From IMG/VR virus record IMGVR_UViG_3300032030_000038, positions 1 to 64,000 of that record: a DNA stretch of 64,000 nt; one strand, 5' to 3'. Position numbers and translations under genes: made by a program. The notes under the pieces are model-generated. The model was not told where the DNA came from. It was given only the letters and a program-made list of their open reading frames with translations, and made no database searches. This document shows, piece by piece, positions 22,397-54,007 of the stretch. Positions within the stretch are counted from its first letter, which is position 1. Every line of letters begins with the position of its first letter. The stretch comes from a virus. Its lineage: Duplodnaviria; Caudoviricetes.

Positions 22397-25300
22397 ATGG
22401 GAACAGCATTACAAACTACAGAGGAGATGAGGGGAATGTCTTCAGTCCCTTCTGCTCAAGAGTTACAAAGTTTATATAATTATCAAAAATATTTATCTAA
22501 TAATTTAAAATTAGAAAATAATAATATAAATTTTTACAGATCACAAAGATTAAGTAATTATACCCCTGATGATATAAGAAGAGGTGAAATCCAAGAGGGA
22601 TTTGGCTCATCAAAATATGATTATAGAATTCCAGATATCGCCATGGCATATGGCGATTTAACTGATTTTAGAGCAGCCCAACAAGGACCTTTTCTTGAAG
22701 CGCTTGCTTCTCTCGGGCAATTTGGGACTAGAGCTGTGGGAACAGTTGCAGAAGGTGTTTCTTTACCATTTGGAATGCTCATAGGTGGTATCAAACACGC
22801 TGTTGACTATCTTGAAAATGACCCTACAAGACCTGAAGAGGAAAAGCATAATTTTCTATATGACATTATATTTAATCCTATTTCTCAGGGAATAAACAAA
22901 GCACAGGATGCTCTTATCGAAAGTATGCCTTTTTATAAAACTACTGAGGAACTTAACAATAGCTGGTGGACAAATGTTGTTCATCACCCCTTCACCTGGT
23001 TTTTTGCAGATGCCCTGCCTAGTATGGGATTTACTGTTGGAGCAATGGTTGGTGGTAAAATTCACGGGAACATGGTTGATTCGCTCCTTGGAAAGGCATT
23101 AGGCAAAAAGGAAATTATTAAGAGAGCAGCTAATTTAGGTGTTGCTCTTGAAGAGATACCAGATGAAAAAATACCAGAACTTATTACGGCTCTTAAAAAC
23201 AATAACGCCGCTCAGAAACTTGATATAATAAATAAGTATCTCAAAAATGAAAGAGTAAAAAATTCAATAAGTAATTGGGCCGGTATTTTGAATGCTTCTG
23301 CAACAGAGGCAACGGTTGAAGGATACAACACTCGTAAAGAATATATCGATGAGGTTCTTCCAAAAGCTTATGATTATATGAAGTCCGAATATTTTCAAAA
23401 CCAACTTCATGATAATTTTCAAAATGATAATGAGGGTTTTGAAGATTTTGAAGACTACCGTGCTGAAAAAGAACGTGAGATTATTCAAAATATAGTAAAG
23501 ACCGCTGATAACATTGGTCTTACTACTTATGGTGCTAACGTTGCATTCCTTACTGCTCACAACAAATTCTTTTGGGATTCCTTCTTCAATCCAAAGTTCT
23601 TGCTTAAAAACTCTGTCCGTGATTATACAAAACTTTTTAAAGTGACTGGTAAAGATGGTCTTGTTACCGATGTTGCTTTGAAGAATAGTTTTTGGATGGA
23701 CCACCCAAGACTTGGAAGAGCTGCTTTCGCAGCAAAAAACGGCCTTGCCGAGGCTTTCGAGGAAATGTCACAAGGCTTGTTTTCTGAGTCTTCGAAGGAA
23801 GGCTATGGCAGTAAAATGAACGATATGTTTTTCAGTGATTACCAAGCTTTGCTTGACCCAAGATATTCTCAAGAAAAAACTGGTTTTTGGAGAGCAGTTG
23901 GCAAGGGTTTTCAAGAAACCTATCTTAATCCTGAAAGATGGGAAGAAGGTATGATTGGTTTTCTCACTGGTTTATTGGGATTGCCTACTGTAGGTATGCA
24001 TCAGAAAGGATCCAGACAGGGTAAGAAAGGTATTACTGGCTGGACTTTTGGTGGTGCAGAAGAGTGGAAGGCCTATCAGGACAGATATAAGCAAGCCGAA
24101 AAACTCGCAAAACAATTCAGGTCAAACGAAGGTAATGAAAGAGATGCTTATATGTCTGTAAAAGATTACCTTACTGGCGAGGAGTCTAGTGAAATGCGCA
24201 AACTTAATGCACTTGGCAAGAGCCCGATGGATATGCTTCGTACAGGTGTTGTGCTTAATGCAATCAGAGATGTTGCTTTAAATGACCAAAGTTCAGATGC
24301 TCCCAATGAAAATAACTTTATTCAATTGCTTGAGTGGAAAAACAAAGTTATGTCTGGTATCTTAATGGGCTATGATACTTATGTGCAAATGGGTATATCA
24401 GATTATTTTGACAATTGGTTGAATTTTTTGCAAAATATAGACAAGACTCAAAATGCTAAAAAATCACAGGAGTTTATTGAGGAACTTATAAATTCAAAGG
24501 TAATTTCAAGTATAGTGTCATCTGATAATCAATCCCTTCTTCAAAATTATAATGCTCACAATAGGGATAAGTTATTAAAAAGAATAGCAAAAAATGCAAG
24601 TGATATAAAAAAATTACTTGATCTTTACAGTGATGTTGAGGCTAATGCTTATGATGTTCTTGTAAACAATTTCAAGGGTGATCCTGAAGCGTATTGGAAA
24701 ATCAAAAGCTTGCTTATCGGTTTGACAAAAGCAAAATTCTCTGAAGAATCTATTTTTTCTGACCCCCTACCTAGTTTACTAAATAAAGAATCTTTTTATA
24801 ATCTCAAAGGTTTCAATAAGTTATATGATATAGCCGATAAAGGTGATAAGAATGCAATACGGGATTCCATACTTGAAGTTGAAAATTCATATAAAGAACT
24901 GCTTCCTGAAGGTACTGATTTCAAAGATCTTAAAGAAAAGTTTGATGAGTATGTTTTTGATATTATCACTTCTGATAAACTTCAAGAGCATATTTATAAA
25001 ATAACAAATCCCACTGCATTTAATCAAGAAGCTGAAAAGGCTGCTAAAAAGACTGAAGACGCAGTTAATGAGCGTACGGTTAAATCCAAAGGTAATGAGA
25101 TAGTAAGTGCATTGCAAAAAGCCCCAAGTATGGAATCTGATAGTGAAGTTATTAGATTACTTTTTGAAATGGGCGGTAAAGGAAGCGAGTTTAATCCTGA
25201 AATAATAAAATCATTTCCTGAAGATGATGAGGGTATTAAAAATAAGTTTGGAATAGCAAGCAATCATTTAAAGAAACTTATAAGAGAGGCTAAAAAATAT

Positions 25301-28117
25301 ATTAATTTGCTTACAGATGTAAAACAGTTAATAGAAGACCCGAATACTCCCGCCGAAGAACTTACTGCTTTAACCGGTGAGGGCGGCATTAGAGAGATGC
25401 TCAGTGAGAATGGGGAATTTACAAACATTCATAAAAAATATGCAAATTTATTTGATAGATACTATACATTATATACCTTGTCGAACAGCTCAGTAGAATT
25501 GGACTCGGAACAGCAAGCAATGCTTAATGTATTAGGAAAGCTGTGGCAATCTCAAGAGTTGATAAAATATTTTGAAGAGAATACTGTTCAGCAAAAAATA
25601 AACAGCCCTTATTCATTTTTTACTTATGAAAATAAGCCAAAAAAAGAGCAATCTGAAACTAAAGAAAATATAAGTTTGGAATCATTTTCAGAAAAAAGTA
25701 AAACCATTGATAGTATTTTTGATAAGAATGAAGAAAGTCTTAGTAAAAAATGGAATTTAGATGCTTATTATCTAAAATGTGTATATTCAGATGCAGAAGA
25801 AACATTAAAAATAAGAATAGAGACTGAGGCAGAGACAGGAGGGCTAAAATGGGTTGGTTCTGCTAATTTAACTAAAAACAATACTTGGGATTTTAAATTC
25901 TCAAAAAGTATAAAAGAAGACGATGCGGTTGTATCTAATTTTAAACAATTCTGCAAAGAAATATTATTTTTATATAACAATACCATAAAAAACAACCAAC
26001 CACAGTCGTCAGCACAACAGGGAATTCCTGTCAATCAAGAACAGCCACAGCAATTCCAGCAAAAATTAATCAAAGTATATGATGACTCTGACAATGTAAT
26101 CAAAGGAGTGACTATTCAGCCTGAGTATATCGATGTTTTGAAACACCTTGCAAAAGATACACCCAACGTAGATGAGGCACGGAGAATAGTCGAAGAAGTT
26201 TTCCCAGATAAAAACAGGGTTGATTCTGTTATTAGATTCTTAAGTTCATTACTTGTTAAGACAGAAAATTCTGAAGACAATAAACAATTTCATATTGTTA
26301 TTGGTAATAAGTTAAATGCTACAAACTTGAAGTATAATGTCTTAAAGTTTGAAAAAGATGCTGTTATCAATAATGTTACAATTGATGATAAGATATTTGA
26401 TATTAAGATAACAAGTGTCGATGACAAAGGAAATATTACAGGTATAGAAACTGCGAGTGGTGAGCCTAAATCTTTCAGAGGAAAAGAATATACTGTACGT
26501 TATAGCGATGGACAGTACTTTGCACCCTCTATAGACAACTACAAACCGGAACCAAAAGATTTTGAAAACTCTGAAGAGGGAAGTCAGTTCCCTGTAACAC
26601 AAGCTGACTATGAGGACGAGAACAAACAACCGGCTAAATATAAATCTACAAAGATTACTGATAACTCGGCTAAAGTAAAACAAAATAAACCATTATATGA
26701 TTATATAAGAAATATACTTGAAGAGAATGATTCTTATATGTCAATGGTAAGACGTGATACAAATGAAGTATTTGAAAATAATGTTGATTCCACTTTATAT
26801 TTTGACTATGTAGATCCAAATAATAACAGCGGTATTGATGGTATAAAAGATCTAATTGGTATTTGGTCATCAAATGATCCTGCAAGTCGTAAACTTTTAG
26901 GCATCATTGATTCTGTATCTGATGCTCATATATTAAAACAAATAAAAGAAAGTGATAAATCACTTACTGACATCACTGGTAAAATAACAAAAATAATAAC
27001 TAGTAAAGCAAATGTTCTTCTTGAACAAGATGGTAAGAAAAATTCTCTTGATAAACTTGATCCAGATAATGATTGTTTATATGTTATCAAAGGTGATTCT
27101 TCATTTTATTCTAATAAATCAAGCAGATCTGATAAGATTATAGCTTCTTCTGAATTGGAAGACTTACTCGGTTCTAAAGTTGACGATCTGCAATCAGGTC
27201 GTGTTTATATATTTACTCCTACAAGAGTTACATATAGGACTAGCACAGGGGAAGAAAAGATAAGACATTATACAAAGGCAAACGCTTCTGTGGAAATGGA
27301 TGGATTATCCTCCGTAGGTATTGATTTGATTCCATCATCGATTGTTGAAGGGACCAAAGAATTCGCACAGAAATATCTTGAAGGAAAAGTAAGTCCTGGT
27401 TCTGAAGATTTACATAACGTAAGTAATTTGTTTTATTCTACTCAGAAAAACTTTAATATAAGGATATCAGAAGGTGAGCAGGGCCAGCCTTTATTAGTAG
27501 CCTCGGTACAAGAAAACGATTCTGATAAAACTTTTTATAAGCCAATTGATACAACTTCTGTTGATACAATATCAAATAATATAATTCAAGCCGCTATAGA
27601 TGCCAATGTTGTTTTACCATACAGGCCAAGCGAGTTGTTTATTGAAAACAACAAACGATTCAATGAATTAAAACCTTATCTCTTTACTACAAAGGCCTTT
27701 GTTGGCGAAAGTAACATTTACTTTAAGTATGCTCTTAATAAAGACAAAGAACAACAAACTGAACCTGTTGAGAGCTCTGGAAACTACACAAAACCAGCCG
27801 AAGAAGTCGAGCTTAAGGGTGAAGATACCGCTCCTACAGAAGCTCCTAAAACTTCAAATGATTCTATAGATGCTATATTTAACAGAGCTGTTCCTGGTTT
27901 AAGTAATATAGCAATAAAACAACTTATAATAGGTGATATTAAATCAGAAAAACAAAAGATTGATAGTTCAAGAAAAAAATTACTTATAACTTCTATAAGA
28001 AATATTGATAATATGTTAAGTCAGAATGATGCTATCGAGATTGTAAAAAACATTGAAAAAGAATTAAAAGCCGAATTAATTACAGAAGACGATACTAAAA
28101 ACGCAGTTGAGTGCTAA
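22397..28117 (+). CDS. giant virion cargo protein (1906 aa)
   Basis: Gly-rich hydrophobic segments, EATVEG and EAFEEMSQ motifs typical of ejected crAss proteins; directly precedes the vRNAP. Confidence 0.7.
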   Translation: MGTALQTTEEMRGMSSVPSAQELQSLYNYQKYLSNNLKLENNNINFYRSQRLSNYTPDDIRRGEIQEGFGSSKYDYRIPDIAMAYGDLTDFRAAQQGPFLEALASLGQFGTRAVGTVAEGVSLPFGMLIGGIKHAVDYLENDPTRPEEEKHNFLYDIIFNPISQGINKAQDALIESMPFYKTTEELNNSWWTNVVHHPFTWFFADALPSMGFTVGAMVGGKIHGNMVDSLLGKALGKKEIIKRAANLGVALEEIPDEKIPELITALKNNNAAQKLDIINKYLKNERVKNSISNWAGILNASATEATVEGYNTRKEYIDEVLPKAYDYMKSEYFQNQLHDNFQNDNEGFEDFEDYRAEKEREIIQNIVKTADNIGLTTYGANVAFLTAHNKFFWDSFFNPKFLLKNSVRDYTKLFKVTGKDGLVTDVALKNSFWMDHPRLGRAAFAAKNGLAEAFEEMSQGLFSESSKEGYGSKMNDMFFSDYQALLDPRYSQEKTGFWRAVGKGFQETYLNPERWEEGMIGFLTGLLGLPTVGMHQKGSRQGKKGITGWTFGGAEEWKAYQDRYKQAEKLAKQFRSNEGNERDAYMSVKDYLTGEESSEMRKLNALGKSPMDMLRTGVVLNAIRDVALNDQSSDAPNENNFIQLLEWKNKVMSGILMGYDTYVQMGISDYFDNWLNFLQNIDKTQNAKKSQEFIEELINSKVISSIVSSDNQSLLQNYNAHNRDKLLKRIAKNASDIKKLLDLYSDVEANAYDVLVNNFKGDPEAYWKIKSLLIGLTKAKFSEESIFSDPLPSLLNKESFYNLKGFNKLYDIADKGDKNAIRDSILEVENSYKELLPEGTDFKDLKEKFDEYVFDIITSDKLQEHIYKITNPTAFNQEAEKAAKKTEDAVNERTVKSKGNEIVSALQKAPSMESDSEVIRLLFEMGGKGSEFNPEIIKSFPEDDEGIKNKFGIASNHLKKLIREAKKYINLLTDVKQLIEDPNTPAEELTALTGEGGIREMLSENGEFTNIHKKYANLFDRYYTLYTLSNSSVELDSEQQAMLNVLGKLWQSQELIKYFEENTVQQKINSPYSFFTYENKPKKEQSETKENISLESFSEKSKTIDSIFDKNEESLSKKWNLDAYYLKCVYSDAEETLKIRIETEAETGGLKWVGSANLTKNNTWDFKFSKSIKEDDAVVSNFKQFCKEILFLYNNTIKNNQPQSSAQQGIPVNQEQPQQFQQKLIKVYDDSDNVIKGVTIQPEYIDVLKHLAKDTPNVDEARRIVEEVFPDKNRVDSVIRFLSSLLVKTENSEDNKQFHIVIGNKLNATNLKYNVLKFEKDAVINNVTIDDKIFDIKITSVDDKGNITGIETASGEPKSFRGKEYTVRYSDGQYFAPSIDNYKPEPKDFENSEEGSQFPVTQADYEDENKQPAKYKSTKITDNSAKVKQNKPLYDYIRNILEENDSYMSMVRRDTNEVFENNVDSTLYFDYVDPNNNSGIDGIKDLIGIWSSNDPASRKLLGIIDSVSDAHILKQIKESDKSLTDITGKITKIITSKANVLLEQDGKKNSLDKLDPDNDCLYVIKGDSSFYSNKSSRSDKIIASSELEDLLGSKVDDLQSGRVYIFTPTRVTYRTSTGEEKIRHYTKANASVEMDGLSSVGIDLIPSSIVEGTKEFAQKYLEGKVSPGSEDLHNVSNLFYSTQKNFNIRISEGEQGQPLLVASVQENDSDKTFYKPIDTTSVDTISNNIIQAAIDANVVLPYRPSELFIENNKRFNELKPYLFTTKAFVGESNIYFKYALNKDKEQQTEPVESSGNYTKPAEEVELKGEDTAPTEAPKTSNDSIDAIFNRAVPGLSNIAIKQLIIGDIKSEKQKIDSSRKKLLITSIRNIDNMLSQNDAIEIVKNIEKELKAELITEDDTKNAVEC

Positions 28118-28135
28118 ATAAAAGAATATATAAAT

Positions 28136-31100
28136 ATGAGTAAATTAAATTGTTTAAATAAAAGCGTTCCTGTCATTCAGGATTTTATTAGATATTTTGG
28201 AGATGAAAATGCTTTAAGAATCAGTAATAGATGCAAACAAATTACTGGAAATGATAGCTATGATTTATTTTTATCAAACGAATTTAAAGACTCAGTCGAA
28301 GCATTCGGCGCAACTGAGACTTTTAGACGTATCAACGAAGCTTTCCATAATGACAGACTTAACAAGTTCTTTAATTTATCCTCTTTTGCAGGTATAGAAG
28401 ACGATACCACTCTTATTGAAATGCAAGAGACAAGATCTAAAGCTAATGATGCTCAAAATAACGAAACACTCTATGTAACAAGGAATGATGAGCTTCAAAA
28501 CATGCTTAATGAGGAGTGGCAAAAGTTTTCAAAAGAGAATGAGCTTGAAAAACTTGAGTTTAATGGCGTCAAAGAAGTCTATATGACTGAAAAATGGCTT
28601 AATGAAAAGAAAGTAACACTTACTGATTATAATGTTATAAAACAAGCTATAACTGATATTATAAGCAGTGATATATCATCCTTTTTATATAATTTCGACG
28701 CTTGGGCATTTATTCATAATTTTGAAGAGGATACTCCTGCATACAAGAGAATGCTTGAGATTTCCAGGAATCGTGATATAAAGAAATTTTTGTCAATAAG
28801 TACCTGTACTTTCAAAGATTTGTTTTATAATGCAATTGAAGATTTAAAATTACAATCACTTGTAAATGCTAATAAAAGTAAAGCGTATATTTATGATATA
28901 TTAGCTGACGATTCTTATGAAAGAGATTCTATTGTAGCACTGTTACAAAGTCAGGTGAGAAATAAAATAAATGATATTTATGATATAAAAGTAAAAAACA
29001 ACAGTGTTGCTTCTATAACTCTTGACCAGCTTAATTTAGAAGATGATATTGATATATTTGATTCTAAAAACGACATAGAGGAAGTAGATAAGGGTGATGT
29101 TGATGAGGCTACAAATGAAGAAGAAAAGCCATCTGAAGAATTCGATGTCATAGGTACTATGTTGTCTTTGAAAGATGATTTGAATTGGGATAGAGCAAAA
29201 AATGACAAACAACTTATTATCCAATTATTCAGTGGCATTCCTAACAAAATGAAAAATGATATAAGTCCTTATGGTGAAGTGCATTATTATAGTCCTTGGA
29301 ATATATTCAACCAACTTGCAAAAGAATGCCATGATTGTACTGACAGTGATGATTTAAAAAACAAATTAAAAAGTTTGTCAAACTATCCTTATACAAAAGA
29401 TATTCTTGAAAGAATTGAAAGTTCAAACAAGTTTGCAACTCTTGCTTGGAAAACATTAAGAGGACAGTATAGAATATTCTTTGATGTTGAGGTTGGTGAT
29501 AATGATATATATGGTCTTAAATTTCCAAACTTTCAATTTAATGGTATGTTTTATAAATATGCAATTACAGATTATGTTGAAAGAAAAAAAGATTCTGGAG
29601 AACAGACTATATTCAATGTAGATAATAAAGTAATTTCATATAATTCAAATTACAGATCAAAGGAGCTTGAGCCTTTATTTAAAAGTATTAAAAATCAATA
29701 TAATATAATATCCTCGACACCTTCGCTTAAAACGTCTGGGCATTCTTTTTCAGCTTCCGAAAAGGCAAAGTTTATAGCAAATATAAGAGCGGAACTCTCA
29801 AAACCTATAAGGGAATTAAATAATCATTCCTTTATGGATGCATTTAAAACATTAATAAACAGATTAGGTTGTCAACAACTTGGATTTGATATAACTGATA
29901 CTGAATTACTTGGTATTTTCACAAGCTTTACGTGTAATTATGACTCATATGGAAATGAGTATTATACATATCTCCCTATTTTTACTCAAACAGATGGATT
30001 AAGAGACCAAATAGAAAATGCTTTAAATGCAACAGGTGTTTCTGAACTGCCTAATATGTTTGATTTCATAGGAACTGTAATGGATACCCAAAATTCATTT
30101 GTATTAAGTGAAAAGGCACATGTAAATTTAGTGTCTTACTTCTATCGTGGTAAAGACGGTTATTATAGCTTTAGCTATCAAGACAAACTATCAAGACGCT
30201 TTACTTGGTTGACTTCACTAACCAATGGTGAATACATCAACTGGTATGAACAGCAGTATGAAAATGATAATTATTTTAAAGCATACCACGATGCAAATGA
30301 ATTGGTTTTTGAAGATGAAAATAAAAGAGGTGTTCCTGTGAGTAATCACTCTGTTCTTTATAAATTATATAAAGATGCAAAAGCTGGTAAAAAAAGTGCT
30401 AAGTTAATTCCTTCTGATAAAGACAATATACAAAATTTTCAACATTTAAATTTTGCTGTACAAGATGGAAAAAAATTTAGTGAACTTTCCAAATATGATA
30501 TAATTATTAACAAACTGGCAGCTTATATAAACAATTCAAGGGATACAATAAAAGACGATAGAAGTCTTTATACTAGTTATGCACTATCTGATAAAAGCAG
30601 ACAAGTTGCTTTTGTAAATTATAGAGACAATAGACCCAGTCTATGTTTAAAATCACTTGCTGCAAAATCAATGATGGAGATTATGCGTATGGTGAATATA
30701 TATAATTCCATAGTGCAGAATAAAAAAGATAATAAATTACGCAAACAGCGTGGAGAGGAGCCTCTTGAATTAACAAATGAACCAAGATTTTCTGCTGAAA
30801 TAAATGAAGTTAATGGTAAATATTTAATTAACTTTAATAATAATGGGGGAATAAGATTTGCGTATCTTCCCGCACTTAATGAATATCTTTATGAAATAAA
30901 CAATGTAGTTGGAGTTGATGAAAACGGTGAAGCAAAACTAAATCACACGCATAATTATACTAGCGTTCAACTTAAATTTATAAGTAATCTCTATAGGTTA
31001 ATATACGATGAAACTGTTAATAAAGAAGAAGAATTCAAAAATGTTTGTAATACATTTATTAAAGTAGATAGTAATAAAGATAATATTATTGCACTTACTC

Positions 31101-34100
31101 TTAATTCCGAAGCAGCATCATTAAAGAAAACCCTTCTCGAATTCCCTTCTTTACTTGATAAATTAGGATTTGTATTTGATAAACAATCTAATGAATATAA
31201 ACTTACTGGTATCAATGAACACCATCCTTTATATAAGACAAATTTAGATGCTTTAATTAATCAGTTTGTATACAATTCAGACGCTTCTCTTGCTGAACAA
31301 ACATTTATTTTCCATAATGATATTGTAAGATACGGTTCTGCAAAAGCATTTAGCAAGCGTGCAAATGAGCTTATAAGTAATGGTCAAGAGATTGACAAGA
31401 CTGCAAGGGATATTAATGGTGAGTTATATGATAACAGGACTAACATAACACAGGGTAAGAAAGTAGAAATTACATGGGCTAATGTAAAATCAAAAAAATT
31501 CATTCAAAATCCTGAATTTTATAATAGTATAGCCAATATAATGACTACTCAAGGCAATGCAAGTAATAGACCAAAAGAAGTAGAAGCCAATAAAAAGGAA
31601 ATTTTAAATTCAACTATTGAAGCAGCCGATGGTCAGTCAATAATATCAATTGCTTATAAAAAAAGATATTTAGGTCAGCTTGGAAAATTGAGTTATTCCG
31701 AAGAAAAAATCTATAATGAACTTATAGATATTTATGATAAAGCAAGTAATTTTATTGAACAAGGAAGATTTGACTTGCTTGATAAATTAAAAGAAAGAAT
31801 AAATAACTTATATAAACAAGAATATAAAACAAATTTTATATCAGGTTCTATAAAACAATTTTCTTCAACAGTCGTCAACAATCCTGCTACAAAAAGAAGT
31901 ACAGCCACTGAGTATAAAAACTCAGAAGTATGCCTTGATGATTTGAAAACCCTTCTTGAAACAAAGAACTACTTCATGATTCGTTTAATGGCTCATATGA
32001 ATCGTAATGGTATAGACTGTATCAATGATGAAACAACCGTTAAAGAAGGGATTAGAAAAGTATTTAATCCGTCTTTTGATAACTTCTTCGAAGAATTTGA
32101 TGCAATCATGGCTGATAAAAACAATATTGATCTGGATTTAGTTACTCTTATGCCAATGGAAGATGTCGCTCTTGTTCAAGAAACTCCCGCTCATGCAATG
32201 GATAGAGAGGATATTTTCGGTACTCAAATAACACGATTAATCCCGGCTACAATTGACAGAAGTGGTAATACTGAATATTACTTATATAAATTTGGCAAAG
32301 ATGAACAAGAAGCTATTTCCGGGGACGATTTGTATAAAAAAATTCAGTCGGTTCTTAATATTAAAATCAAAAACAATATTGACAAGGTTTTTGATAAATT
32401 CGGAATTTCAAATGAAATATATAATAAGATTGAAAAAAATGAGCCACTTACAGAAGAAGAAAAAACAAGGTTAAATAGAAAATTATCTGATATATTAAAA
32501 ACAAACAGTAAGTTTTCAGATACGGATTATAGATTTTTTGTCGACCCAGTAACTGGTAAATTTGCGTATCCTATAAATGAATTTACAAGTGCTACCGAAT
32601 TATCAAAAACAATTGCATCTGTTATTAAAAATGACATTATAGCAAATAATGTAAAGGGTGGGCAACTCGTCCAAGTTACTAATGCTCTTAATGAACTGTT
32701 TTATCGTTTAAAGAATGGCGAATCTAAAGATTCTCCAGAAGTTAGAAAATTACTTGATGAGTCTTTAGAGTGTAAGATTGAATATTATCCTGACGGTTCT
32801 TTAAAAGAAGTTTATATGGAAGCCGAGATACCTTTTATGTATAAAGATGCAATAAATGAATATATTGACAAAGATGGTAATATTGATATGAATAAAGTTC
32901 CAGAGGAATTAAAACATGGTATTTTTTATAGAATTCCTACAGAAGGACTTTGTTCAATCTTCCATATTAAAGTAAAAAGATTCACTTATGGAATGGCCGA
33001 CCATGTAAAACTTCCTGTTGAAATTACCAAACTCGCTGGTCTTGACTTTGATATTGATAAATTATTTACCTTTATTGCAGCCATGAAAAAAAATAAAGAA
33101 GGTAAATTAGAATATGTAAAGCCAGACTTAAATGATTTGGAAAGTAATAAAACAAGCGAGCAAGCTAACAATGCTTTATTTGAGTTGATGCTTACTGCAT
33201 TAAACAGTCCCACAGGTGTTAATGGCTATAATGAATTTGGAGGATATGAGCCATTAAAGTATAAAGGACTTGCAATATTTTTAGCAATTGAAGAAGCAAC
33301 AAAAACCAATAAAGATATAAAGCAGTGTTATGATAACGCTATGAAACTCTCCAATAAACAAATTGAAGATTTATTTTCAAATTATAATAAAACGCAATCA
33401 CCTTGTTCTGTTATAACTAATATCAATATTCAGGAGTCAAACTTTGAAAGTAAAGATATGCTTGGCAAGTCTGCAAATGGAAATGCTCTAGCAGCAGAAT
33501 TATCTCAGCTTAATGTCCACCTTAATACTTCAATGTTTGGTCAAGGAGTCAAGATAGGTTCTTCAGAAATAATTAAAACTACATCTACAAAGTTTGCACC
33601 AAAAAATACCGTAAATAATACCAATTCGTGTCAAAATATTATAAGACAACCACTTGCTGCATCAGCTGATGTTGGCAAAGAAGCATTTTTAAATCTTATT
33701 GGATTTAATAATTTTTCAATTGGTATTTGGTCTAGTTTAATGAATCTTGGCTGTGAGCTTGAAGATGCTTTATTATTTATGCAACACCCAATAGTAAGAT
33801 ATTTGTCAGATAAATATAAGCAAATGAATTTTAAAAATGAATTTGGTGCAAGACCTTTGAATGTACTTACTAAAAATTCAATATTAGCCTCAAACAGCAA
33901 AAGTTCAGATTATGATGAATTATTTTTAGGCAGAGGTAATAAAAGAATTGAAATATCAACTGATTCTCTTATAAATAGCTTAACACAATCTTATGATGAG
34001 TTCTGCAACTATCATCCAAATACAGCAATTGATATTGAAAAACTTATCTATTTCTTACTTAAGAATAATCAAGAAGTTGTAACTTTATCCCCATTTCTTA

Positions 34101-35350
34101 AAATGGATTCAAAATCTAATATATCATGGAATTCAACATTTGGATTATTGGCAACCATAATGAATTTTGAGCAGTTTGCCAAAGATGTTGAAGCTCCTGA
34201 GGTTATAACCACATTCTCAAAAGAAATACTTGATGTTTTTGGTTATAAAAAAAGAAATACAGAAAATACAATTCCGAGACTTGCAACAATTTATAACGAA
34301 ATACCTGTACTTGTAACTACTATATTACATAATCAAAATCAACATATTTTTGAAAAACTTAATGAAGTAGCCTCAAATGTTGTTGATCAAACAGGTGCTC
34401 ATCTTAATGAATCTGACGTAAAGGATATCTATAATTTATATAATTATGCAATGCTCTCCCTGGAGAATAATTTTTTAAATAAATATTTTAAGAATATAAA
34501 TCTTGAAAAAAGAGGTGAATTATTAAAATCCATCATAGCAGACAAGGATACTTTTATTAATAAATATCCGGATAATGCTTTTATAAAAAACATTGATATT
34601 GATAAAATAACATCATCAACTCTGGAAAAATATAAAAACCAATTAAAAGGTATAAACTCAAATAAAACACAAATAGATCCTACAAAATTAAGTAAATCTA
34701 ATGAAGATGATATAAGAACTGATCTTATTAAATTATTGCTTAGCGATGATGAAGAAATAAAAGAATTTATAAATAAAATATTTATTATATCAATTATGCA
34801 AAGTGGATTTAATAAATATACATCAAAAAGCCCTTTGAGATATTTTAATGAGATTGCACTTGCAAACGTTCTTGATAAAGATTATATAAGATATTTTTCT
34901 AATAATACATATGATGAAATGAAATTGGATTCTAAGTTTTCATTAAATGATTTATTAGTATCACAAGATATAAATGTAAATTCATTAAAACTTACCGAAT
35001 ATATAATAAGATCGCTACCTAATTTAATAAAATCAAAATCATCTGCAAAAGAAGGAAAGTATTATAAAAATAAAGACGGTGCTATATTCAAACCAATTTT
35101 ACAAGGAGAAGACAGTGTTATTTACCAGCAAGTAAGTAAACTTAGTGTTCTTGGTGTTTTATTAGAAGCATTTAGTAATATTGCATATAATATAACAGAT
35201 GCAAGTGAGTTTAGTGAAAATACAAAAAGAACTAAAGAAATTCAAGAGCCTGTTGGAAGTGGCTTGAAAAATACCACTTTTGAGACATGGCATGATACTA
35301 ATAATATACAAAAAAATGACCAAACAAAGCAAGCTTGTAACAATAAATAA
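28136..35350 (+). CDS. virion-associated DNA-dependent RNA polymerase (Crassvirales type, phi14:2 gp66-like)
   Basis: Catalytic GLDFDIDK (DFDID at 33044-33058), upstream YRIPT and ADGQ motifs; 2404 aa. Confidence 0.88.
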   Translation: MSKLNCLNKSVPVIQDFIRYFGDENALRISNRCKQITGNDSYDLFLSNEFKDSVEAFGATETFRRINEAFHNDRLNKFFNLSSFAGIEDDTTLIEMQETRSKANDAQNNETLYVTRNDELQNMLNEEWQKFSKENELEKLEFNGVKEVYMTEKWLNEKKVTLTDYNVIKQAITDIISSDISSFLYNFDAWAFIHNFEEDTPAYKRMLEISRNRDIKKFLSISTCTFKDLFYNAIEDLKLQSLVNANKSKAYIYDILADDSYERDSIVALLQSQVRNKINDIYDIKVKNNSVASITLDQLNLEDDIDIFDSKNDIEEVDKGDVDEATNEEEKPSEEFDVIGTMLSLKDDLNWDRAKNDKQLIIQLFSGIPNKMKNDISPYGEVHYYSPWNIFNQLAKECHDCTDSDDLKNKLKSLSNYPYTKDILERIESSNKFATLAWKTLRGQYRIFFDVEVGDNDIYGLKFPNFQFNGMFYKYAITDYVERKKDSGEQTIFNVDNKVISYNSNYRSKELEPLFKSIKNQYNIISSTPSLKTSGHSFSASEKAKFIANIRAELSKPIRELNNHSFMDAFKTLINRLGCQQLGFDITDTELLGIFTSFTCNYDSYGNEYYTYLPIFTQTDGLRDQIENALNATGVSELPNMFDFIGTVMDTQNSFVLSEKAHVNLVSYFYRGKDGYYSFSYQDKLSRRFTWLTSLTNGEYINWYEQQYENDNYFKAYHDANELVFEDENKRGVPVSNHSVLYKLYKDAKAGKKSAKLIPSDKDNIQNFQHLNFAVQDGKKFSELSKYDIIINKLAAYINNSRDTIKDDRSLYTSYALSDKSRQVAFVNYRDNRPSLCLKSLAAKSMMEIMRMVNIYNSIVQNKKDNKLRKQRGEEPLELTNEPRFSAEINEVNGKYLINFNNNGGIRFAYLPALNEYLYEINNVVGVDENGEAKLNHTHNYTSVQLKFISNLYRLIYDETVNKEEEFKNVCNTFIKVDSNKDNIIALTLNSEAASLKKTLLEFPSLLDKLGFVFDKQSNEYKLTGINEHHPLYKTNLDALINQFVYNSDASLAEQTFIFHNDIVRYGSAKAFSKRANELISNGQEIDKTARDINGELYDNRTNITQGKKVEITWANVKSKKFIQNPEFYNSIANIMTTQGNASNRPKEVEANKKEILNSTIEAADGQSIISIAYKKRYLGQLGKLSYSEEKIYNELIDIYDKASNFIEQGRFDLLDKLKERINNLYKQEYKTNFISGSIKQFSSTVVNNPATKRSTATEYKNSEVCLDDLKTLLETKNYFMIRLMAHMNRNGIDCINDETTVKEGIRKVFNPSFDNFFEEFDAIMADKNNIDLDLVTLMPMEDVALVQETPAHAMDREDIFGTQITRLIPATIDRSGNTEYYLYKFGKDEQEAISGDDLYKKIQSVLNIKIKNNIDKVFDKFGISNEIYNKIEKNEPLTEEEKTRLNRKLSDILKTNSKFSDTDYRFFVDPVTGKFAYPINEFTSATELSKTIASVIKNDIIANNVKGGQLVQVTNALNELFYRLKNGESKDSPEVRKLLDESLECKIEYYPDGSLKEVYMEAEIPFMYKDAINEYIDKDGNIDMNKVPEELKHGIFYRIPTEGLCSIFHIKVKRFTYGMADHVKLPVEITKLAGLDFDIDKLFTFIAAMKKNKEGKLEYVKPDLNDLESNKTSEQANNALFELMLTALNSPTGVNGYNEFGGYEPLKYKGLAIFLAIEEATKTNKDIKQCYDNAMKLSNKQIEDLFSNYNKTQSPCSVITNINIQESNFESKDMLGKSANGNALAAELSQLNVHLNTSMFGQGVKIGSSEIIKTTSTKFAPKNTVNNTNSCQNIIRQPLAASADVGKEAFLNLIGFNNFSIGIWSSLMNLGCELEDALLFMQHPIVRYLSDKYKQMNFKNEFGARPLNVLTKNSILASNSKSSDYDELFLGRGNKRIEISTDSLINSLTQSYDEFCNYHPNTAIDIEKLIYFLLKNNQEVVTLSPFLKMDSKSNISWNSTFGLLATIMNFEQFAKDVEAPEVITTFSKEILDVFGYKKRNTENTIPRLATIYNEIPVLVTTILHNQNQHIFEKLNEVASNVVDQTGAHLNESDVKDIYNLYNYAMLSLENNFLNKYFKNINLEKRGELLKSIIADKDTFINKYPDNAFIKNIDIDKITSSTLEKYKNQLKGINSNKTQIDPTKLSKSNEDDIRTDLIKLLLSDDEEIKEFINKIFIISIMQSGFNKYTSKSPLRYFNEIALANVLDKDYIRYFSNNTYDEMKLDSKFSLNDLLVSQDINVNSLKLTEYIIRSLPNLIKSKSSAKEGKYYKNKDGAIFKPILQGEDSVIYQQVSKLSVLGVLLEAFSNIAYNITDASEFSENTKRTKEIQEPVGSGLKNTTFETWHDTNNIQKNDQTKQACNNK

Positions 35351-35358
35351 TATTAAGT

Positions 35359-38300
35359 ATGGCAAATAAACATAGTTGTTTAATTCATCCAACAACAAAA
35401 TCTGGGCAGCCCAGTAAATTATTTTCAAATTTAAGAAAAGAATTTGATTATGAACAATCCTGGAAAATCTGGAATGCAGCCGTATCTCCAGAGTACAAAC
35501 GGGACTTTGGTTCTACTACTATCTATGATGAATTCGGAGAACCTGAATTACAATCTTTATTTGATAATTTAGATATAGTATCAGACAGCCCTATTAATAC
35601 TGAAAAGTATGAAAAAGAGCTTAATACAAATCTTCCTGAAGATAATTTATCTATAATGAAACGTGTTGTTGATTTTAATGAAAAACACAATACGGTAAAG
35701 GCAAAAATTAGTAGCTTTAATTTAATTTCAGAAGAAGGTAATAGTGCACATATTACTGTTGAAATTGCTGACAGTGAAAAAAGAAACATTGCAAAAGCAT
35801 TAAAAATAAACACTGCAATCTATGAAAAAATAAATAAGTACCTAAATAACTTAGGTATGTCAATTGATTTTTTTGGGGGTGAGTTTTTCAATGGTGAAAA
35901 GGCGCTAATGGATCCACAATCTGGTATTACGAATGCAAAAGGTTTTATAAATGTTATAAAATTATCGAATGATCAAGAGGCACTTGGAAAGTTACCGGAA
36001 GAATTAGGACACTTCTTAATTGAATGTAATACAAACAATTCTACTGTGACAAGGGCTCTAAATATATTAAGTCAAGATGAAAAACTTATAAAAGAAATTT
36101 TAGGAAATGATTATGAAGATGTATTAGATTATTACATTGGGCAAAATCGTCCTGATGCGATTGTTAAAGAAGCTCTAGGACGGCTTTTAATAAAATCTAT
36201 CAATAAAGATATCGATTTGATGATAGAAGGTCAAAATAGACCGTTTTTAACCCGTATAAAAGGCTATCTTGATAAAATATGGAGTTCAATAAAAAAGCTC
36301 TTTAAAAGGAGAGATAAAAATAATACAAATCCTATACAAGAACTTGAAGATTCATTACAACCTATACTCCATACGTTTTCAACCAGTGAGAGTAAAAGAA
36401 ATGAAATTAAACAACGTTTTCATGAATATGGCGAGCAAATGGCTCATGTCAACACTTTACTCCAAGACTATAATGATTTATTTTCAAAAGGAGGTGTTGT
36501 TGATGAGATAAGAAACACAATTGCAAGAGAAAATAATTATTATAGTAAAGTTTACAAAGACATTGAAAAGCTTAAAGAGGAGATAAAAACAACTTCGGAA
36601 GCTTTCAAAATGTTTATTCAAAGTCGTGAGAACAGCGTAAAGAATGAAACAGAGGCTTATGATACTACTAAAGACATTGGTAATCTTGCGAGTATCGGGT
36701 TTTATTCAGAACAGGAAATTCTCGACCTGCGCAATATACATCATTTTTGTAAATATATCGATAAAATACAAAAATTAATTAATAACCAATTGGAGTTTCT
36801 TAAAGACGTACAAATTAAAAGCACTTCGTATGAGGAAATACTTTCCAGTTCCACACAAATAAATACAATAAAATCGTTTATTGAAACACAAGAACCTATT
36901 ATAAATGATTTACTCAATTTTTCAGAAGCAATAGTTGATAATAAAATCGATGATACTCTTAAAGATGAAGCTTTTCAGGAAGCAGCTAAAAAATTAAGAA
37001 GTGTTGTATCGGAAGATCATCAATTATTAACAAGCCTCAAGAGTGAACTTCTTTCAGCAATGAGCATTGTAACTGATCAATTTTGGGAAAATTCAGTCGA
37101 TCAAGAAACTCTTGATAATATTATTCCAAAACACATACAACAAAGAGAGAACCTTGTTGACAATGCGAAAAAAATTGATTATATTCTTAGTTTCTCAATG
37201 AGGGATATAAGTGGTGTAGCAAGATTATTTACTGCTTATTATGCTCAAAAAGATCCTCTTATTAATTTAGTAAACAATACTCTTCGTAAACAGGAAGAAG
37301 AAGCTCGTATTGCCTCTCAGCTATTTATAAAAGAGATTGCCGAGATTACACAAGAATATATTGACGAAACTGGCAGTAAGGACACTTCATTTATTTATGA
37401 AAATGATGAAAATGGAAAGCCAACACACTTTCTAAAAACTACCGAGGGTGTTTCTATACCAAAATGGCGTGCTATTAAAAAGGAAGTGTGGAAACAAATA
37501 AGTGAAGATGATACACTTACTAAAAAGCAAAAACACGAAAAATGGATTGCTTTTGTAAATAATTCTACTCAAGAAAAACGTATAGAAAACTATATATATG
37601 ATGCTTCCACAAACACATTTGTACAAACTATTCTACCACAATCTATAAGAATACCTACAACAAATGTTAGTATTGAACCCCGTGCAAAAGAATGGATTAC
37701 AAATGATTTTTCAAAACTTAATGAAGCACAACAAAGATTCCTTATAAAGTATCTTGAAGCAAAAAATAAACTTGAATCGATGCTTCCATCAACTATACGT
37801 CTTAAACGTGAAGGACTTTACTATCGTGCTGTACAAAGAGTTGTCGCTTCTGCTGGTGAAGCTATTTTAAATAATAAGAATGGTTTTTTTGAACAAGTAG
37901 GCGGGTTAATGAAAAACTCTCTGTATGCTCTTGATGAAGATGATATTGTCAACACTGAAGATATTGAGGATGAATTTGATTTGGATAATCCTTTAACAGA
38001 AGATAGACCTGACAATATAGGAGAAGAATCATTTTTAAGGGCAATTACAAGAAAAGGTAAAAAATTTAAAAATAAATTGCTTAATGCAATTCATCGTTGG
38101 CTTTATCCTGATACAGACCCAGTAAGTGATACTCCCGATCCTAATGACCCAAAAGGAAGTTCAAGAATTATTACAAGAAAAACCTCATCTGAATTTAACC
38201 AACGTAGAAAAGTACCTGTTTATTTTACTCGTTTATTAAGCCCGGAAAGACTCTCAAGTCTTTCAACAGATGCTTCCGGTTCTCTCATTGAATATACAAT

Positions 38301-39906
38301 GGCTTGTTTCAGATTTAAAGCAATGAATGATGTTGCTGATATTATGGAACTTACTTACGAACGTGCCAAGTATCGTAGATTACAGAAAACAAAATATGGT
38401 TTTAAAAACATACTTCATATGATTGATCCAAATAATCCTGAAACATCATTAGATCAAGCAATTACTAATGATGCAGCGAGTAGTAATATGCTACAATCAT
38501 TAAGGCAACTACTTGACACAAAACTATATAGTGAATACAATATGGATGCTCGTGGTGAAGCTGGATCGTTCTCGCCAGAAAAAACCACACAAACAATACT
38601 AAGACTTACAGCATTCTCTATGCTTGGTTATAATGTATTTTCAGGTATTAATAATATAGTGGTTGGTAAATACCAGACAATGATTGAGGCTATTGGTAAG
38701 GGTAATTTTGACAAGTCTGATTGGGCTTGGGCTGAAAAGGAATATCATAAATTACTTCCTGAATATGTAAAAGAACTCGGTAAACCTCATAAAACAAGTA
38801 AATTGGCATTACTTGATGAATTATTTAACGCTACTATGGAATGGAAAGAAACTCTTGAAGGCACAAAATATTATTCAAACAATGCTCTTCGTACTCTTTC
38901 AAAGTTTAATTCCGGGATGTTTATGAATATGGGTGAAATGAATCTTAAATTAGTTACTTTGCTTGCCAAGCTTCATAATTATAAAATGAAAGATTCAGGA
39001 GGTAACGAAACAAATCTTTATGAGTCTCTTCAGTTTGATTATAAGTACAATAAAAACGGTGATAAAATTTCAGGCAGAATATCAATTAAAAATGGTTACA
39101 CAAAACCTGACGGTACTAAATTCACAATGACAAGAAAAAACGGTTATCAGCAAAGTGACCTTTATGATTTTTGTCTTAAAATGAATGTGATGAATCATCG
39201 TATGCATGGTATTTATAACCGTGAAGATCAAATTGAGGCATTACGCCACTGGTGGGGTAAGCTTCTCTTATTGTTCAGACGGTTTATCGTGCCCACTGTT
39301 GAGAATCGTTATATGGGCTCTCGTTATAATGTCGACACCAAACAATGGGAAGAAGGATTTTATGTTACAGGGCTTAAAGCAATTACCAAAATCATTATGA
39401 ATGAGGCTGGTCTTGCTTATGGTCAAGGCAGAATAAAAGGAGCATTAAATGATTTTAATGATTTTCAAAAAGCAAATCTTAAAAAATTTATTGGAGAATT
39501 TGTAACACTGCTTGCTTTAATGTTATTATTAGCCTTTGCAGTCCCTGATTATAAAGATGAGGACAGGTTTGTACTTCGTGCAGTTAACTATCATATCAGA
39601 CGTCTTATTCAAGAAATTGAATTTTACCAACCATGGAATATCAATTCAATATATGATATTCTTCAAAGTCCTAGTGCAACTCTTGGCTTGTTAACAAGAT
39701 ATTTTGAGGTACTTGGCTCTATTCCTAATTTAAACGAGCGATATAAAGCAGGTCCTAATAAGGGAAAACTTAAAATAGGTGTCAAAGCAATGAATGCCTT
39801 GCCTCTTTACCCACAAATTCGTGACGTAATTAAGTTTGCTGAAGACGATGGTAGATTTAGAATATTTGAACCAGTAATGTTTGAATCTTTAAAAAACGAA
39901 GAATAA
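35359..39906 (+). CDS. giant virion cargo protein with a degenerate zincin-like motif
   Basis: PEELGHFLIE...KEALGRLL; HGIYN..D and EEGFY motifs; C-terminal hydrophobic FVTLLALMLLLAFAV. Confidence 0.7.
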   Translation: MANKHSCLIHPTTKSGQPSKLFSNLRKEFDYEQSWKIWNAAVSPEYKRDFGSTTIYDEFGEPELQSLFDNLDIVSDSPINTEKYEKELNTNLPEDNLSIMKRVVDFNEKHNTVKAKISSFNLISEEGNSAHITVEIADSEKRNIAKALKINTAIYEKINKYLNNLGMSIDFFGGEFFNGEKALMDPQSGITNAKGFINVIKLSNDQEALGKLPEELGHFLIECNTNNSTVTRALNILSQDEKLIKEILGNDYEDVLDYYIGQNRPDAIVKEALGRLLIKSINKDIDLMIEGQNRPFLTRIKGYLDKIWSSIKKLFKRRDKNNTNPIQELEDSLQPILHTFSTSESKRNEIKQRFHEYGEQMAHVNTLLQDYNDLFSKGGVVDEIRNTIARENNYYSKVYKDIEKLKEEIKTTSEAFKMFIQSRENSVKNETEAYDTTKDIGNLASIGFYSEQEILDLRNIHHFCKYIDKIQKLINNQLEFLKDVQIKSTSYEEILSSSTQINTIKSFIETQEPIINDLLNFSEAIVDNKIDDTLKDEAFQEAAKKLRSVVSEDHQLLTSLKSELLSAMSIVTDQFWENSVDQETLDNIIPKHIQQRENLVDNAKKIDYILSFSMRDISGVARLFTAYYAQKDPLINLVNNTLRKQEEEARIASQLFIKEIAEITQEYIDETGSKDTSFIYENDENGKPTHFLKTTEGVSIPKWRAIKKEVWKQISEDDTLTKKQKHEKWIAFVNNSTQEKRIENYIYDASTNTFVQTILPQSIRIPTTNVSIEPRAKEWITNDFSKLNEAQQRFLIKYLEAKNKLESMLPSTIRLKREGLYYRAVQRVVASAGEAILNNKNGFFEQVGGLMKNSLYALDEDDIVNTEDIEDEFDLDNPLTEDRPDNIGEESFLRAITRKGKKFKNKLLNAIHRWLYPDTDPVSDTPDPNDPKGSSRIITRKTSSEFNQRRKVPVYFTRLLSPERLSSLSTDASGSLIEYTMACFRFKAMNDVADIMELTYERAKYRRLQKTKYGFKNILHMIDPNNPETSLDQAITNDAASSNMLQSLRQLLDTKLYSEYNMDARGEAGSFSPEKTTQTILRLTAFSMLGYNVFSGINNIVVGKYQTMIEAIGKGNFDKSDWAWAEKEYHKLLPEYVKELGKPHKTSKLALLDELFNATMEWKETLEGTKYYSNNALRTLSKFNSGMFMNMGEMNLKLVTLLAKLHNYKMKDSGGNETNLYESLQFDYKYNKNGDKISGRISIKNGYTKPDGTKFTMTRKNGYQQSDLYDFCLKMNVMNHRMHGIYNREDQIEALRHWWGKLLLLFRRFIVPTVENRYMGSRYNVDTKQWEEGFYVTGLKAITKIIMNEAGLAYGQGRIKGALNDFNDFQKANLKKFIGEFVTLLALMLLLAFAVPDYKDEDRFVLRAVNYHIRRLIQEIEFYQPWNINSIYDILQSPSATLGLLTRYFEVLGSIPNLNERYKAGPNKGKLKIGVKAMNALPLYPQIRDVIKFAEDDGRFRIFEPVMFESLKNEE

Positions 39907-52678: not shown

Positions 52679-54007
52679 CTACTTTATAAATTTTGATATA
52701 CAAATCAAATCATCCAGACCTGATTCAGCACCTATATAATCATGTAATAATTCCTGTTTTTGCTTTAGAGTTTCCAAGTCTCTCAATGCTCTGAACATAG
52801 AACACCTTTTTACATGAGGTGCTTCATAACAATAAGCAACATCAATCACATCATAAAGAGAGTCACCCATATCACTATATAAAGCCGTATTCAATTCCGT
52901 ATAGAAATTTTCAATTGGCAAATCTTTTAATCTACAATAAATAGATTCCGCTATTTTAATCATTCCTGTCAGAATGTACAACCAAATAGTTATTTTATTA
53001 AAATTTCTGGTCGGACTTAAAAAGCGAAATTCAACAGTTTTATGTTTCTTATAAAACAAAAGATTTATAAAATTGACCCAATGATATCTTGATGATACAT
53101 TCCACTTTCTCGTTCTTGAAGAATCATTTGGATGATTGGCTGTCAAATCAATCTTTGAGATATCATTTTCATTTATATAGAAATCTTCATTACTGATATA
53201 GTAATTATACATTTCAGATATATTTGAAAAATCCAAAAGTTTTTTACAATAATCCTTTTTACTCTTTTTGAATTTTGAAGTATTAAATGCATACTTTGGA
53301 ATGACAGAAACAATTGCATCTTCAAATTTTTTACATACCTTATATAATGTAAATATGAATCTTATATCATTAGGCACTTTTCCAAAATGAATATGCAACG
53401 AACATTCTTTATCAAAACTTGTATACTTTTTAAGCAATTTCAATTGATTTTTCAGAATACTCAAACCATAAGTCTTCCCTAATACAATAGATGAATATTC
53501 AAATCCTGAAATTGACCCATCTCTTAAAGGAATAAGTCCGTACTTATAGCATAAATGTTCTGGAATCATACCACTGCTCGTTTCAAACTCAAAACCAAAA
53601 GAATATTTCAATAGTGATTGAAGCTTATCATTAATCTCCCTGTCCTTTTCAGTATAAAGATTGAATCTTGTTAATAAATTATTGCAAGAATATTCCAAAT
53701 TAAAAGTTTTGTATTGACAACGACCTCTTTCTTTTAAACATCTATAAACTACAAGGGATTTATTATTTACATCTCCATATATATAAAAATAAACACCATT
53801 GTTTTTATTATAAAACAAATTTTCTTTATATTTTATTGATGTAATATCAGTCATCATATCTGCTATAAAGTGTTCAGGCGTTTCTTTATTACTTGAAACA
53901 TAAAAAATTTGCATATACCCTATCTTATTATAAGCTACATCCACTCTTTTAGCTTCATATTCATTTGTATTTATCAATAAATCCTCATTAAGCAATAATA
54001 CTCTCAT
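52679..54007 (-). CDS. putative amidoligase (glutamine synthetase/glutamate-cysteine ligase fold)
   Basis: FGFEFET, RDGSI.GFEY, CSLHIH, RYHWVN and TVEFR motifs. Confidence 0.8.
   Translation of the reverse strand: MRVLLLNEDLLINTNEYEAKRVDVAYNKIGYMQIFYVSSNKETPEHFIADMMTDITSIKYKENLFYNKNNGVYFYIYGDVNNKSLVVYRCLKERGRCQYKTFNLEYSCNNLLTRFNLYTEKDREINDKLQSLLKYSFGFEFETSSGMIPEHLCYKYGLIPLRDGSISGFEYSSIVLGKTYGLSILKNQLKLLKKYTSFDKECSLHIHFGKVPNDIRFIFTLYKVCKKFEDAIVSVIPKYAFNTSKFKKSKKDYCKKLLDFSNISEMYNYYISNEDFYINENDISKIDLTANHPNDSSRTRKWNVSSRYHWVNFINLLFYKKHKTVEFRFLSPTRNFNKITIWLYILTGMIKIAESIYCRLKDLPIENFYTELNTALYSDMGDSLYDVIDVAYCYEAPHVKRCSMFRALRDLETLKQKQELLHDYIGAESGLDDLICISKFIK

Follow-up and report, generated by a model that had tools for sequence, protein, structure and literature searches.

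In the human gut no phages are more abundant than the crassviruses, which have five cargo proteins. Three of these are giants, here called D, E and F, E being the virion RNA polymerase (vRNAP). We describe them as encoded in a stretch of 64,000 nucleotides (positions 1 to 64,000 of IMG/VR virus record IMGVR_UViG_3300032030_000038; the window in what follows), and are concerned with the cysteines (Cys) which stand near the ends at which the three proteins face each other, and which probably join them head to tail in the virion. The window is part of the 99-kb record of a crAss-like phage, in which the genes for the muzzle protein, cargo 1, cargo 2, D, E and F follow one another in that order, all on the + strand (Table 1).

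The closest described joint of this kind is that of cyanopodophage A4 (Anabaena phage A-4L), in which gp27 inserts its C-terminal helix into a cleft of gp26 and a disulfide between Cys1715 and Cys5 locks it there, as seen by cryo-electron microscopy (PNAS 2025, PMC12002296). In the A-4L record gp27 (1717 aa) and gp26 (1114 aa, beginning MSKHC) are specified by consecutive genes, and these two residues are their only Cys. A4 is a member of the family Saffermanviridae, lacks a vRNAP and has a single junction; furthermore its pair of proteins forms a pentameric ring around the portal. Searches with A4 gp25–gp29 against all of our D, E and F sets (phmmer) returned no match.

Among cultured crassviruses the corresponding proteins, in the order D-E-F, are gp47, gp50 and gp49 of crAss001 and gp67, gp66 and gp65 of phi14:2. 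The crAss001 proteins are present in the particle as judged by mass spectrometry, their order of ejection is probably set by how the cargo proteins interact, and the same virions carry inter-subunit disulfides in the tail and portal vertex (PMC10172136). The phi14:2 counterparts were also detected in virions by mass spectrometry, gp66 being the protein of PDB entry 6VR4 (bioRxiv 10.1101/2020.03.07.982082). The window resembles both phages in the DFDID two-barrel RNA polymerase core of E, in a block which follows muzzle, cargo 1 and cargo 2, in its gp49 homologue, and in obeying the same rule of terminal Cys. It differs in being distant (approximately 24% identity in the core), in having the three genes on one strand, and in the many internal Cys of its E protein.

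Members of the Schitoviridae likewise eject a giant virion RNA polymerase together with helper proteins. Those of N4 (gp50 vRNAP, gp51 and gp52) and DEV (gp71–73) possess essentially no Cys (PMC11445570, PMC13434306), an avoidance which has been ascribed to passage through the periplasm (PMC11445570). Cys is strongly depleted in crassvirus D, E and F too, but these proteins retain it exactly at the junctions, so that they do not fall into the Cys-free class. The N4 polymerase has a T7-like fold and the crassvirus enzyme a two-barrel one. The N4 vRNAP is a single chain of loosely joined N-terminal domain, core and C-terminal domain, a layout that a tethered D-E-F would mimic.

In the window, D has four Cys and ends AVEC directly before its stop codon, E begins MSKLNC and ends QACNNK, and F begins MANKHSC. 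These details had been recorded in the first-pass annotation, which was made from the letters of the sequence, and all of them are correct by ORF and codon check. The positions and counts of Cys also confirm its statement that the outer ends of the series and the two smaller cargo proteins are Cys-free: no Cys precedes Cys1128 in D and none follows Cys1272 in F. Were Cys placed uniformly, the joint chance of finding the four in 10-residue end windows would be about 4e-6, a figure calculated post hoc. In the 41 other genes of the window Cys occurs within the first 10 residues of two and the last 10 residues of five; overall these genes contain 1.6% Cys, against 0.21% in D, 0.33% in F and 0.79% in E.

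The placement is very like that of A4, in which the bonded residues are 1715 of 1717 in gp27 and Cys5 in gp26; their counterparts here are residue 1906 of 1906 in D facing Cys6 of E, and residue 2401 of 2404 in E facing Cys7 of F. Apart from their ends D, E and F are Cys-poor, as are the A4 proteins. In A4 it is the C-terminal helix of gp27 that docks on gp26; the AlphaFold2 (AF2) model of D likewise ends in helices, with Cys1906 at the low-confidence tip of the terminal helix. In the model of F residues 1–10 are coil (pLDDT 62) and residues 11–70 form a folded helical domain (pLDDT at least 90), so that Cys7 lies on a short tail ahead of it. In these models the terminal Cys of D and F look free to react.

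The terminal Cys are present and strongly conserved. In the four closest relatives, which are 37–53% identical in E (protein search), all four are kept though the flanking residues differ, and the D proteins of these phages have merely 2–5 Cys in some 2,000 residues. For a wider survey an exhaustive HMMER search with the polymerase core was reduced to 150 representatives of no more than 50% mutual identity, and the 130 of at least 1,900 aa were analysed. Cys is found in the first 10 residues of 107 of the 128 homologues which start with Met (84%; 3.7% expected from composition), and in the last 10 residues of 119 of the 130 (92%; 4.1% expected), an enrichment with a binomial p of <1e-100. At the N-terminus it occupies positions 2–8, mostly 5, and is followed by Val, Ile or Leu. 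At the C-terminus it is the very last residue in 49%, preceded by Ile, Leu, Met or Phe; the tail ahead of it is acidic, with Asp or Glu at -5 to -7 and Gly at -4, and its offset from the end varies between 1 (the last residue) and 14.

The partner proteins behave in the same manner. Separate D proteins carry Cys within their last 1–8 residues in 35 of 35 lineages. An alignment of 30 F N-termini, a set chosen for having Cys, shows no invariant column other than this residue and Met1. The Cys content of D, E and F is some seven times lower than that of neighbouring genes (0.21–0.25% versus 1.73%), and ordinary neighbouring ORFs have it in their end windows in 9.5% and 14.3% of cases.

The model phages are cleaner still. 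In phi14:2 the only Cys of gp67 (1797 aa) is its last residue, gp66 (2180 aa) has C3 and C2179, and the only Cys of gp65 (1421 aa) is C3: four Cys in 5,398 residues, every one at a facing end. The single Cys of crAss001 gp47 (2341 aa) is C2339, gp50 (2412 aa) has three including C5 and C2404, and gp49 (1349 aa) has one, C5. The joint chance of such a placement is about 1e-9 for each phage.

One might object that the pattern was seen post hoc in the window, the E protein of which has 19 Cys in all, and the first-pass annotation had itself cautioned that the terminal Cys of the vRNAP could be accidental. The count among orthologues which it had proposed disposes of this caution: 84% and 92% occupancy against about 4% expected, at offsets that vary. 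Because the pattern is conserved both in the relatives and across the order it is not due to chance. Nor is it a product of DNA signals at gene junctions, since D keeps its C-terminal Cys in crAss001-like genomes, which encode it on the opposite strand and far from E. Refuted by the survey, an accidental or nucleotide-level origin has next to no probability left.

The distribution of Cys was then compared with the arrangement of the genes. Eighty loci from IMG/VR and a second sample of 80 from metagenome contigs were taken together with the clade loci, crAss001 and phi14:2; ORFs were called, D, E and F were assigned by homology and position, and the polymerases were clustered at 60% identity into 40 + 36 = 76 clusters. 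Junction counts cover clusters with both sides in view (L denotes a locus label and P a protein representative). The loci were found with the diverse alignment A2 as query; the clade alignment A1 gave two loci, and single-protein scans of IMG/VR with the window E, P0114, P0031, P0037 and P0147 gave none.

Where D and E are separate, Cys is present on both sides of the junction in 35 of 35 clusters, and where E and F are separate, in 62 of 64; the remaining two are L080, an outlier in that the Cys of its F protein is residue 20, and the unclear case L070. Two classes of fusion were tallied, 14 DE fusions and 3 EF or DEF fusions, and neither has Cys at a fused junction. In the 14 DE clusters the polymerase ORF directly follows a Cys-free cargo-2-like gene and has a long N-terminal extension, in which a D-like region was detected in 12. 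These ORFs lack an N-terminal Cys and possess 0–2 Cys in 3,300–4,600 aa, with one at the C-end wherever that end is visible; the N-terminal Cys of F is kept wherever the start of F is visible. In L014, for example, the DE ORF of 4461 aa has one Cys, its last residue, and the F protein has one, C5; L037, L019, L041, L084, L110 and L139 are similar.

The EF fusion of L016, which reads TAG as a residue (71 in-frame TAG codons), shows the converse: the sole Cys of D is its last residue, Cys4 of E is kept, and the fused joint has none. P0114, known from protein sequence alone, joins E and F in 4295 aa, is 40% identical to crAss001 and has a single Cys, C6, while the E + F protein of L089 has none in at least 3,868 aa. 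Finally, in L071/L074 and also L142/L170 D-like, E and F regions make up one ORF with 0 Cys (Table 1). Free ends carry Cys in 0 of all observed cases. Cys therefore occur only at junctions between separate proteins and are lost in pairs on fusion, the free ends being bare, and there are always two Cys-tipped ends per junction. As separate observations, the DEF ORFs are among the longest phage ORFs met in this analysis, and L016:638–17806 and L100 represent a TAG-recoded crass-like phage in which two genes contain 44 and 71 in-frame TAG codons and the vRNAP is fused to a gp49-like protein.

Apart from L080 the apparent exceptions are artefacts of contig ends, start-codon choice, frameshifts or genetic code. 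L013, L070, L067, L018 and L089 are open at the contig start. For the F protein of L063 and the E protein of L162, the first ATG lies ahead of the Met with which the conserved N-terminal motif (MAKKC; MSCVNTNSKEFK) begins. The F gene of L165 begins at the stop of E and then shifts frame. L087 was rejected as an EF fusion, its lone in-frame TAG being the stop of E (E ends ENKC before it and F starts MAQSC). In L018:9751–12181, L049:12961–14390 and L165:15633–16200 E or F is broken by a change of frame and is one ORF in close relatives, which may be either an assembly error or a real frameshift.

A negative control is provided by bajarodcaudo virus 1, in which a group I intron (Rfam RF00028, 47 bits, E-value 1.6e-10; a second match scores 32 bits) carrying a homing endonuclease splits E at GSDFD/VDKMY, in the DFDID motif itself. 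Cys is absent from the two pseudo-ends made by the intron and present at the true ends. The PQ006092.1 record annotates the pieces of this vRNAP as separate hypothetical proteins.

A vRNAP tree, a quick one built on a window around the DFDID motif (the phmmer core search had reached 20 of the 40 representatives), places all DE fusions in one well-supported clade, within which phi14:2 forms a long branch. On this tree fusion of E with F took place on three or more occasions.

Based upon the order-wide conservation, the rule of split and fused genes, and the disulfide seen by cryo-electron microscopy in A4, we consider it probable that D, E and F are joined head to tail in the virion through their facing terminal Cys, most likely by two intermolecular disulfides. 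The facing Cys, one near each facing terminus, would be bonding partners, the C-end of D bonding the N-end of E and the C-end of E the N-end of F. The resulting thread, about 5,800 residues long and with the RNA polymerase at its centre, would presumably be the split equivalent of the single DE, EF or DEF polyproteins of other crassviruses. The disulfides may form after the capsid has been sealed or released. Stubs of 1–10 residues would keep the joints thin for the tail channel, through which one protein would draw the next, and the host cytoplasm would then reduce the bonds and set the three proteins free. The first-pass annotation had proposed a link between facing Cys in gene order; the pairing D-E-F is supported in part by the evidence just named, and gene order is not essential to it, D being encoded on the opposite strand in crAss001-like phages.

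Several points weigh against a disulfide thread. Its support comes from sequences, models and the A4 analogy, the bond itself being a prediction in crassviruses. Six of the 130 full-length vRNAPs (P0018, P0031, P0037, P0067, P0092 and P0147) are without a C-terminal Cys, and the window E, with 17 further Cys, is less cleanly Cys-free than the polymerases of the model phages. DE fusions are confined to one clade and so may reflect one or a few events; because of this the Fisher p values of 1.5e-12 and 2e-4, which carry no phylogenetic correction, overstate the number of independent events. Drobysheva et al. noted fusions of the three proteins in certain phages and proposed that cleavage separates the parts again (bioRxiv 10.1101/2020.03.07.982082); if it does, there is no need for a permanent link.

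Moreover fusion removes both termini at once, and paired loss is also expected if each Cys acts separately near its terminus. Paired loss alone is thus no proof of pairing, and as both Cys are present at all split junctions there is no natural single loss by which dependence could be tested. Each Cys might then bond to the portal, the capsid interior, cargo 1 or 2 or a second copy of its own protein (D-D, F-F, E-E), or serve as a brake or anchor in ejection, and crAss001 tail and portal-vertex proteins do use Cys for bonds between subunits. Such independent roles leave unexplained why Cys is missing throughout 76 lineages from the start of D, DE or DEF and from the end of F, EF or DEF, and why Cys-tipped ends number twice the junctions; cargo 1 and cargo 2 are without Cys as partners, and in A4 the partners are facing ends. 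It is by this polarity alone that pairing specifically is argued, because free ends never carry Cys. We regard separate action as unlikely.

The cytoplasm in which virions are assembled is reducing and the gut in which many hosts live is anoxic, for which reasons the timing of disulfide formation is hard to place. The main alternative to a disulfide takes its strength from these circumstances, many of the hosts being strict anaerobes. It keeps the head-to-tail topology and places a metal ion (Zn, Fe or Cu) between the facing Cys, further ligands being supplied by adjacent Asp, Glu or His residues; this clasp would form in the cytoplasm and could act during packaging. The acidic vRNAP tail ahead of the Cys would suit it, as would a C-x-x-H (SCLIHP) in the F proteins of the window's clade and an H-C in some E tails. 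Neither His nor a fixed acidic ligand is conserved, however (crAss001 gp49 begins MAKKCAIIPQ), and two thiolates alone make a weak site. The sole solved case of the signature, A4 gp27-gp26, is a disulfide, and disulfides do occur in crAss001 virions. We judge a metal clasp improbable, to about the same degree as separate action of each Cys; a single four-Cys metal site shared by all ends was excluded, as DE/F and D/EF phages keep two Cys.

The varied offset of the C-terminal Cys, and the lack of any fixed motif there, bear on a further proposal, namely that the Cys serve processing or modification: as an N-terminal nucleophile or lipid anchor after removal of a leader, as the site of a C-terminal modification, or as a cysteine switch on a zincin-like protease domain. 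The N-terminal Cys, 2–7 residues past Met and followed by Val, Ile or Leu, is loosely reminiscent of a lipobox, and HExxH occurs about 200 residues ahead of the end in gp47-type D proteins and at residue 245 in phi14:2 gp65. Ahead of the N-terminal Cys, in contrast, there is no signal peptide or hydrophobic stretch, the residues being polar or basic, and processing predicts neither facing pairs nor their joint loss in fusions in which the protease motif stays. We think it very improbable. Three more specific candidates were rejected. Cys at positions 2–8, close after Met and with no hydrophobic core, do not correspond to those of bacterial lipoproteins; split inteins or trans-splicing were excluded as the ends bear no intein blocks; and a CaaX-like signal was excluded as the offset varies from 1 to 14.

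With a disulfide thread as the preferred reading, one may also ask whether the joints share a common structure. Residues 8–75 of the F model superimpose on residues 2–95 of phi14:2 gp66 (6vr4_B) with Z 6.0 and an rmsd of 2.7 Å over 65 aligned residues at 31% identity; this chain is the top match of 48,161 for the F N-terminal model, at a Z that is modest. Foldseek against PDB with the same model returned no match, and A4 gp26 (9k3a; PDB 9k3a_A) was not listed by the Foldseek and VIA searches with it. The motif C-[VIL]-N-x-x-S-x-E-F-K heads the E protein in L112, L155 and L162 and the F protein in L139, L165 and L076. E of L112 and F of L139 are 35% identical over residues 1–46, and the latter is 29% identical to crAss001 gp50 over 72 residues; profile-profile comparison of F and E N-termini gave a weak hhalign probability of 16%. 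Taken together these similarities suggest that the protein downstream of a junction, whether E or F, bears a common acceptor module.

It is possible, if somewhat short of probable, that a portable connector of two parts, a short Cys-ended helical C-module and a Cys-headed N-module of about 70 residues, lets a polyprotein of about 6,000 residues be cut or fused at set points in evolution while its continuity is preserved. Within the virion the pieces would be re-joined as a thread centred on the polymerase, which would leave through the tail in fixed order and come apart by reduction in the host. Such a connector, if real, would be a split analogue of the chain of N-terminal domain, core and C-terminal domain in the N4 vRNAP.

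The gene block itself was identified as a crassvirus tail and cargo module through the match of its muzzle gene (Table 1). PHROGs has no family for any of the six proteins. D has homologues in the relatives L002, L005 and L006 with E-values down to 1e-160, and no match to gp47 by phmmer. By position and C-terminal module D is nonetheless the putative counterpart of crAss001 gp47 and phi14:2 gp67; when this module is aligned with gp47-type proteins (alignment A5) the Cys is the sole invariant column. The gp47-type proteins carry G-T-x-Y-H-E-A-F-H (HExxH, zincin-like) at A5 columns ~150–185, as in L031:18712–19461 (- strand), and the window D has no HExxH at the place aligned with it.

E was matched by tblastn, in 64 records, to the "putative RNA polymerase" of crAss001 and other crass-like records (about 24% identity, E-value 7e-24); a PDB sequence search with it gave no match. 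Its GLDFDID motif (residues 1635–1641, nt 33044–33058) contains Asp1637, Asp1639 and Asp1641, none of which varies among 46 homologues. The 3060-aa vRNAP of the 37%-identity relative (L006:10001–19183, P0005) matches Pfam ART-PolyVal (PF18760), an ADP-ribosyltransferase-like insert absent from the window E. F matches crAss001 gp49 over a span including both protein ends (phmmer, E-value 2e-71).

Three smaller observations concern the window. D and E (28115–28138) are in the same frame, with only TAA and six codons (ATA AAA GAA TAT ATA AAT) between them; this spacing is shared by L002 and not by L005 or L006, and is probably insignificant. Residues 200–235 of F (window 35359–36138, alignment A3) include near-invariant I200, E214, E215, H218 and R232, with the consensus ALPEEFxHF. 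Unrelated to the cargo pattern, a protein specified by 53988–55607 (- strand) starts MCGLFGF, with the typical nucleophile Cys of a class II glutamine amidotransferase.

Table 1. Genes, terminal Cys codons and comparison loci; positions refer to the window unless a locus label is given
Feature	Position	Strand	Size and Cys content	Basis or context
Muzzle protein	11779..18111	+	2110 aa, 34 Cys	Pfam crAss_MUZ, E-value 1e-115
Cargo protein 1	18193..20631	+	812 aa, 0 Cys	Pfam crAss_CARG1, E-value 5e-25
Cargo protein 2	20639..22390	+	583 aa, 0 Cys	Pfam crAss_CARGO2, E-value 5e-9
D, first giant cargo protein	22397..28117	+	1906 aa, 4 Cys	ORF directly after cargo-2 gene
E, virion RNA polymerase (vRNAP)	28136..35350	+	2404 aa, 19 Cys	tblastn to annotated polymerases; GLDFDID
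F, third giant cargo protein	35359..39906	+	1515 aa, 5 Cys	phmmer to crAss001 gp49; directly after E
Cys1906 of D, last residue (NAVEC, stop)	28112..28114	+		TGC; D-side of D/E junction
Cys6 of E (MSKLNC)	28151..28153	+		TGT; E-side of D/E junction
Cys2401 of E, fourth from end (QACNNK, stop)	35336..35338	+		TGT; E-side of E/F junction
Cys7 of F (MANKHSC)	35377..35379	+		TGT; F-side of E/F junction
Single DEF ORFs	L071:1223-18142, L074:686-17596, L142:1229-18133, L170:56-16966		~5,636-5,639 aa	
Intron-interrupted vRNAP, bajarodcaudo virus 1	L177:13219-14112			PQ006092.1

The terminal Cys of D, E and F found no mention in the crAss001 structure paper (PMC10172136), the phi14:2 polymerase preprint (bioRxiv 10.1101/2020.03.07.982082) or full-text literature searches. 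For this type of link A4 is a precedent. What appears to be undescribed is its use across the order Crassvirales, together with the chain of three proteins around a polymerase and the rule of split and fused genes. The crAss001 structure paper and the 2026 N4 paper leave the mutual relation of gp47, gp49 and gp50 open. A covalent D-E-F thread, if it exists, would explain the 1:1:1 loading of the three proteins, their fixed order of exit through a channel of <50 Å, the freedom with which their genes fuse and split, and the survival of a few Cys in proteins which otherwise avoid them. It would also extend the single observation in A4 to a general principle of podophage ejectosomes.

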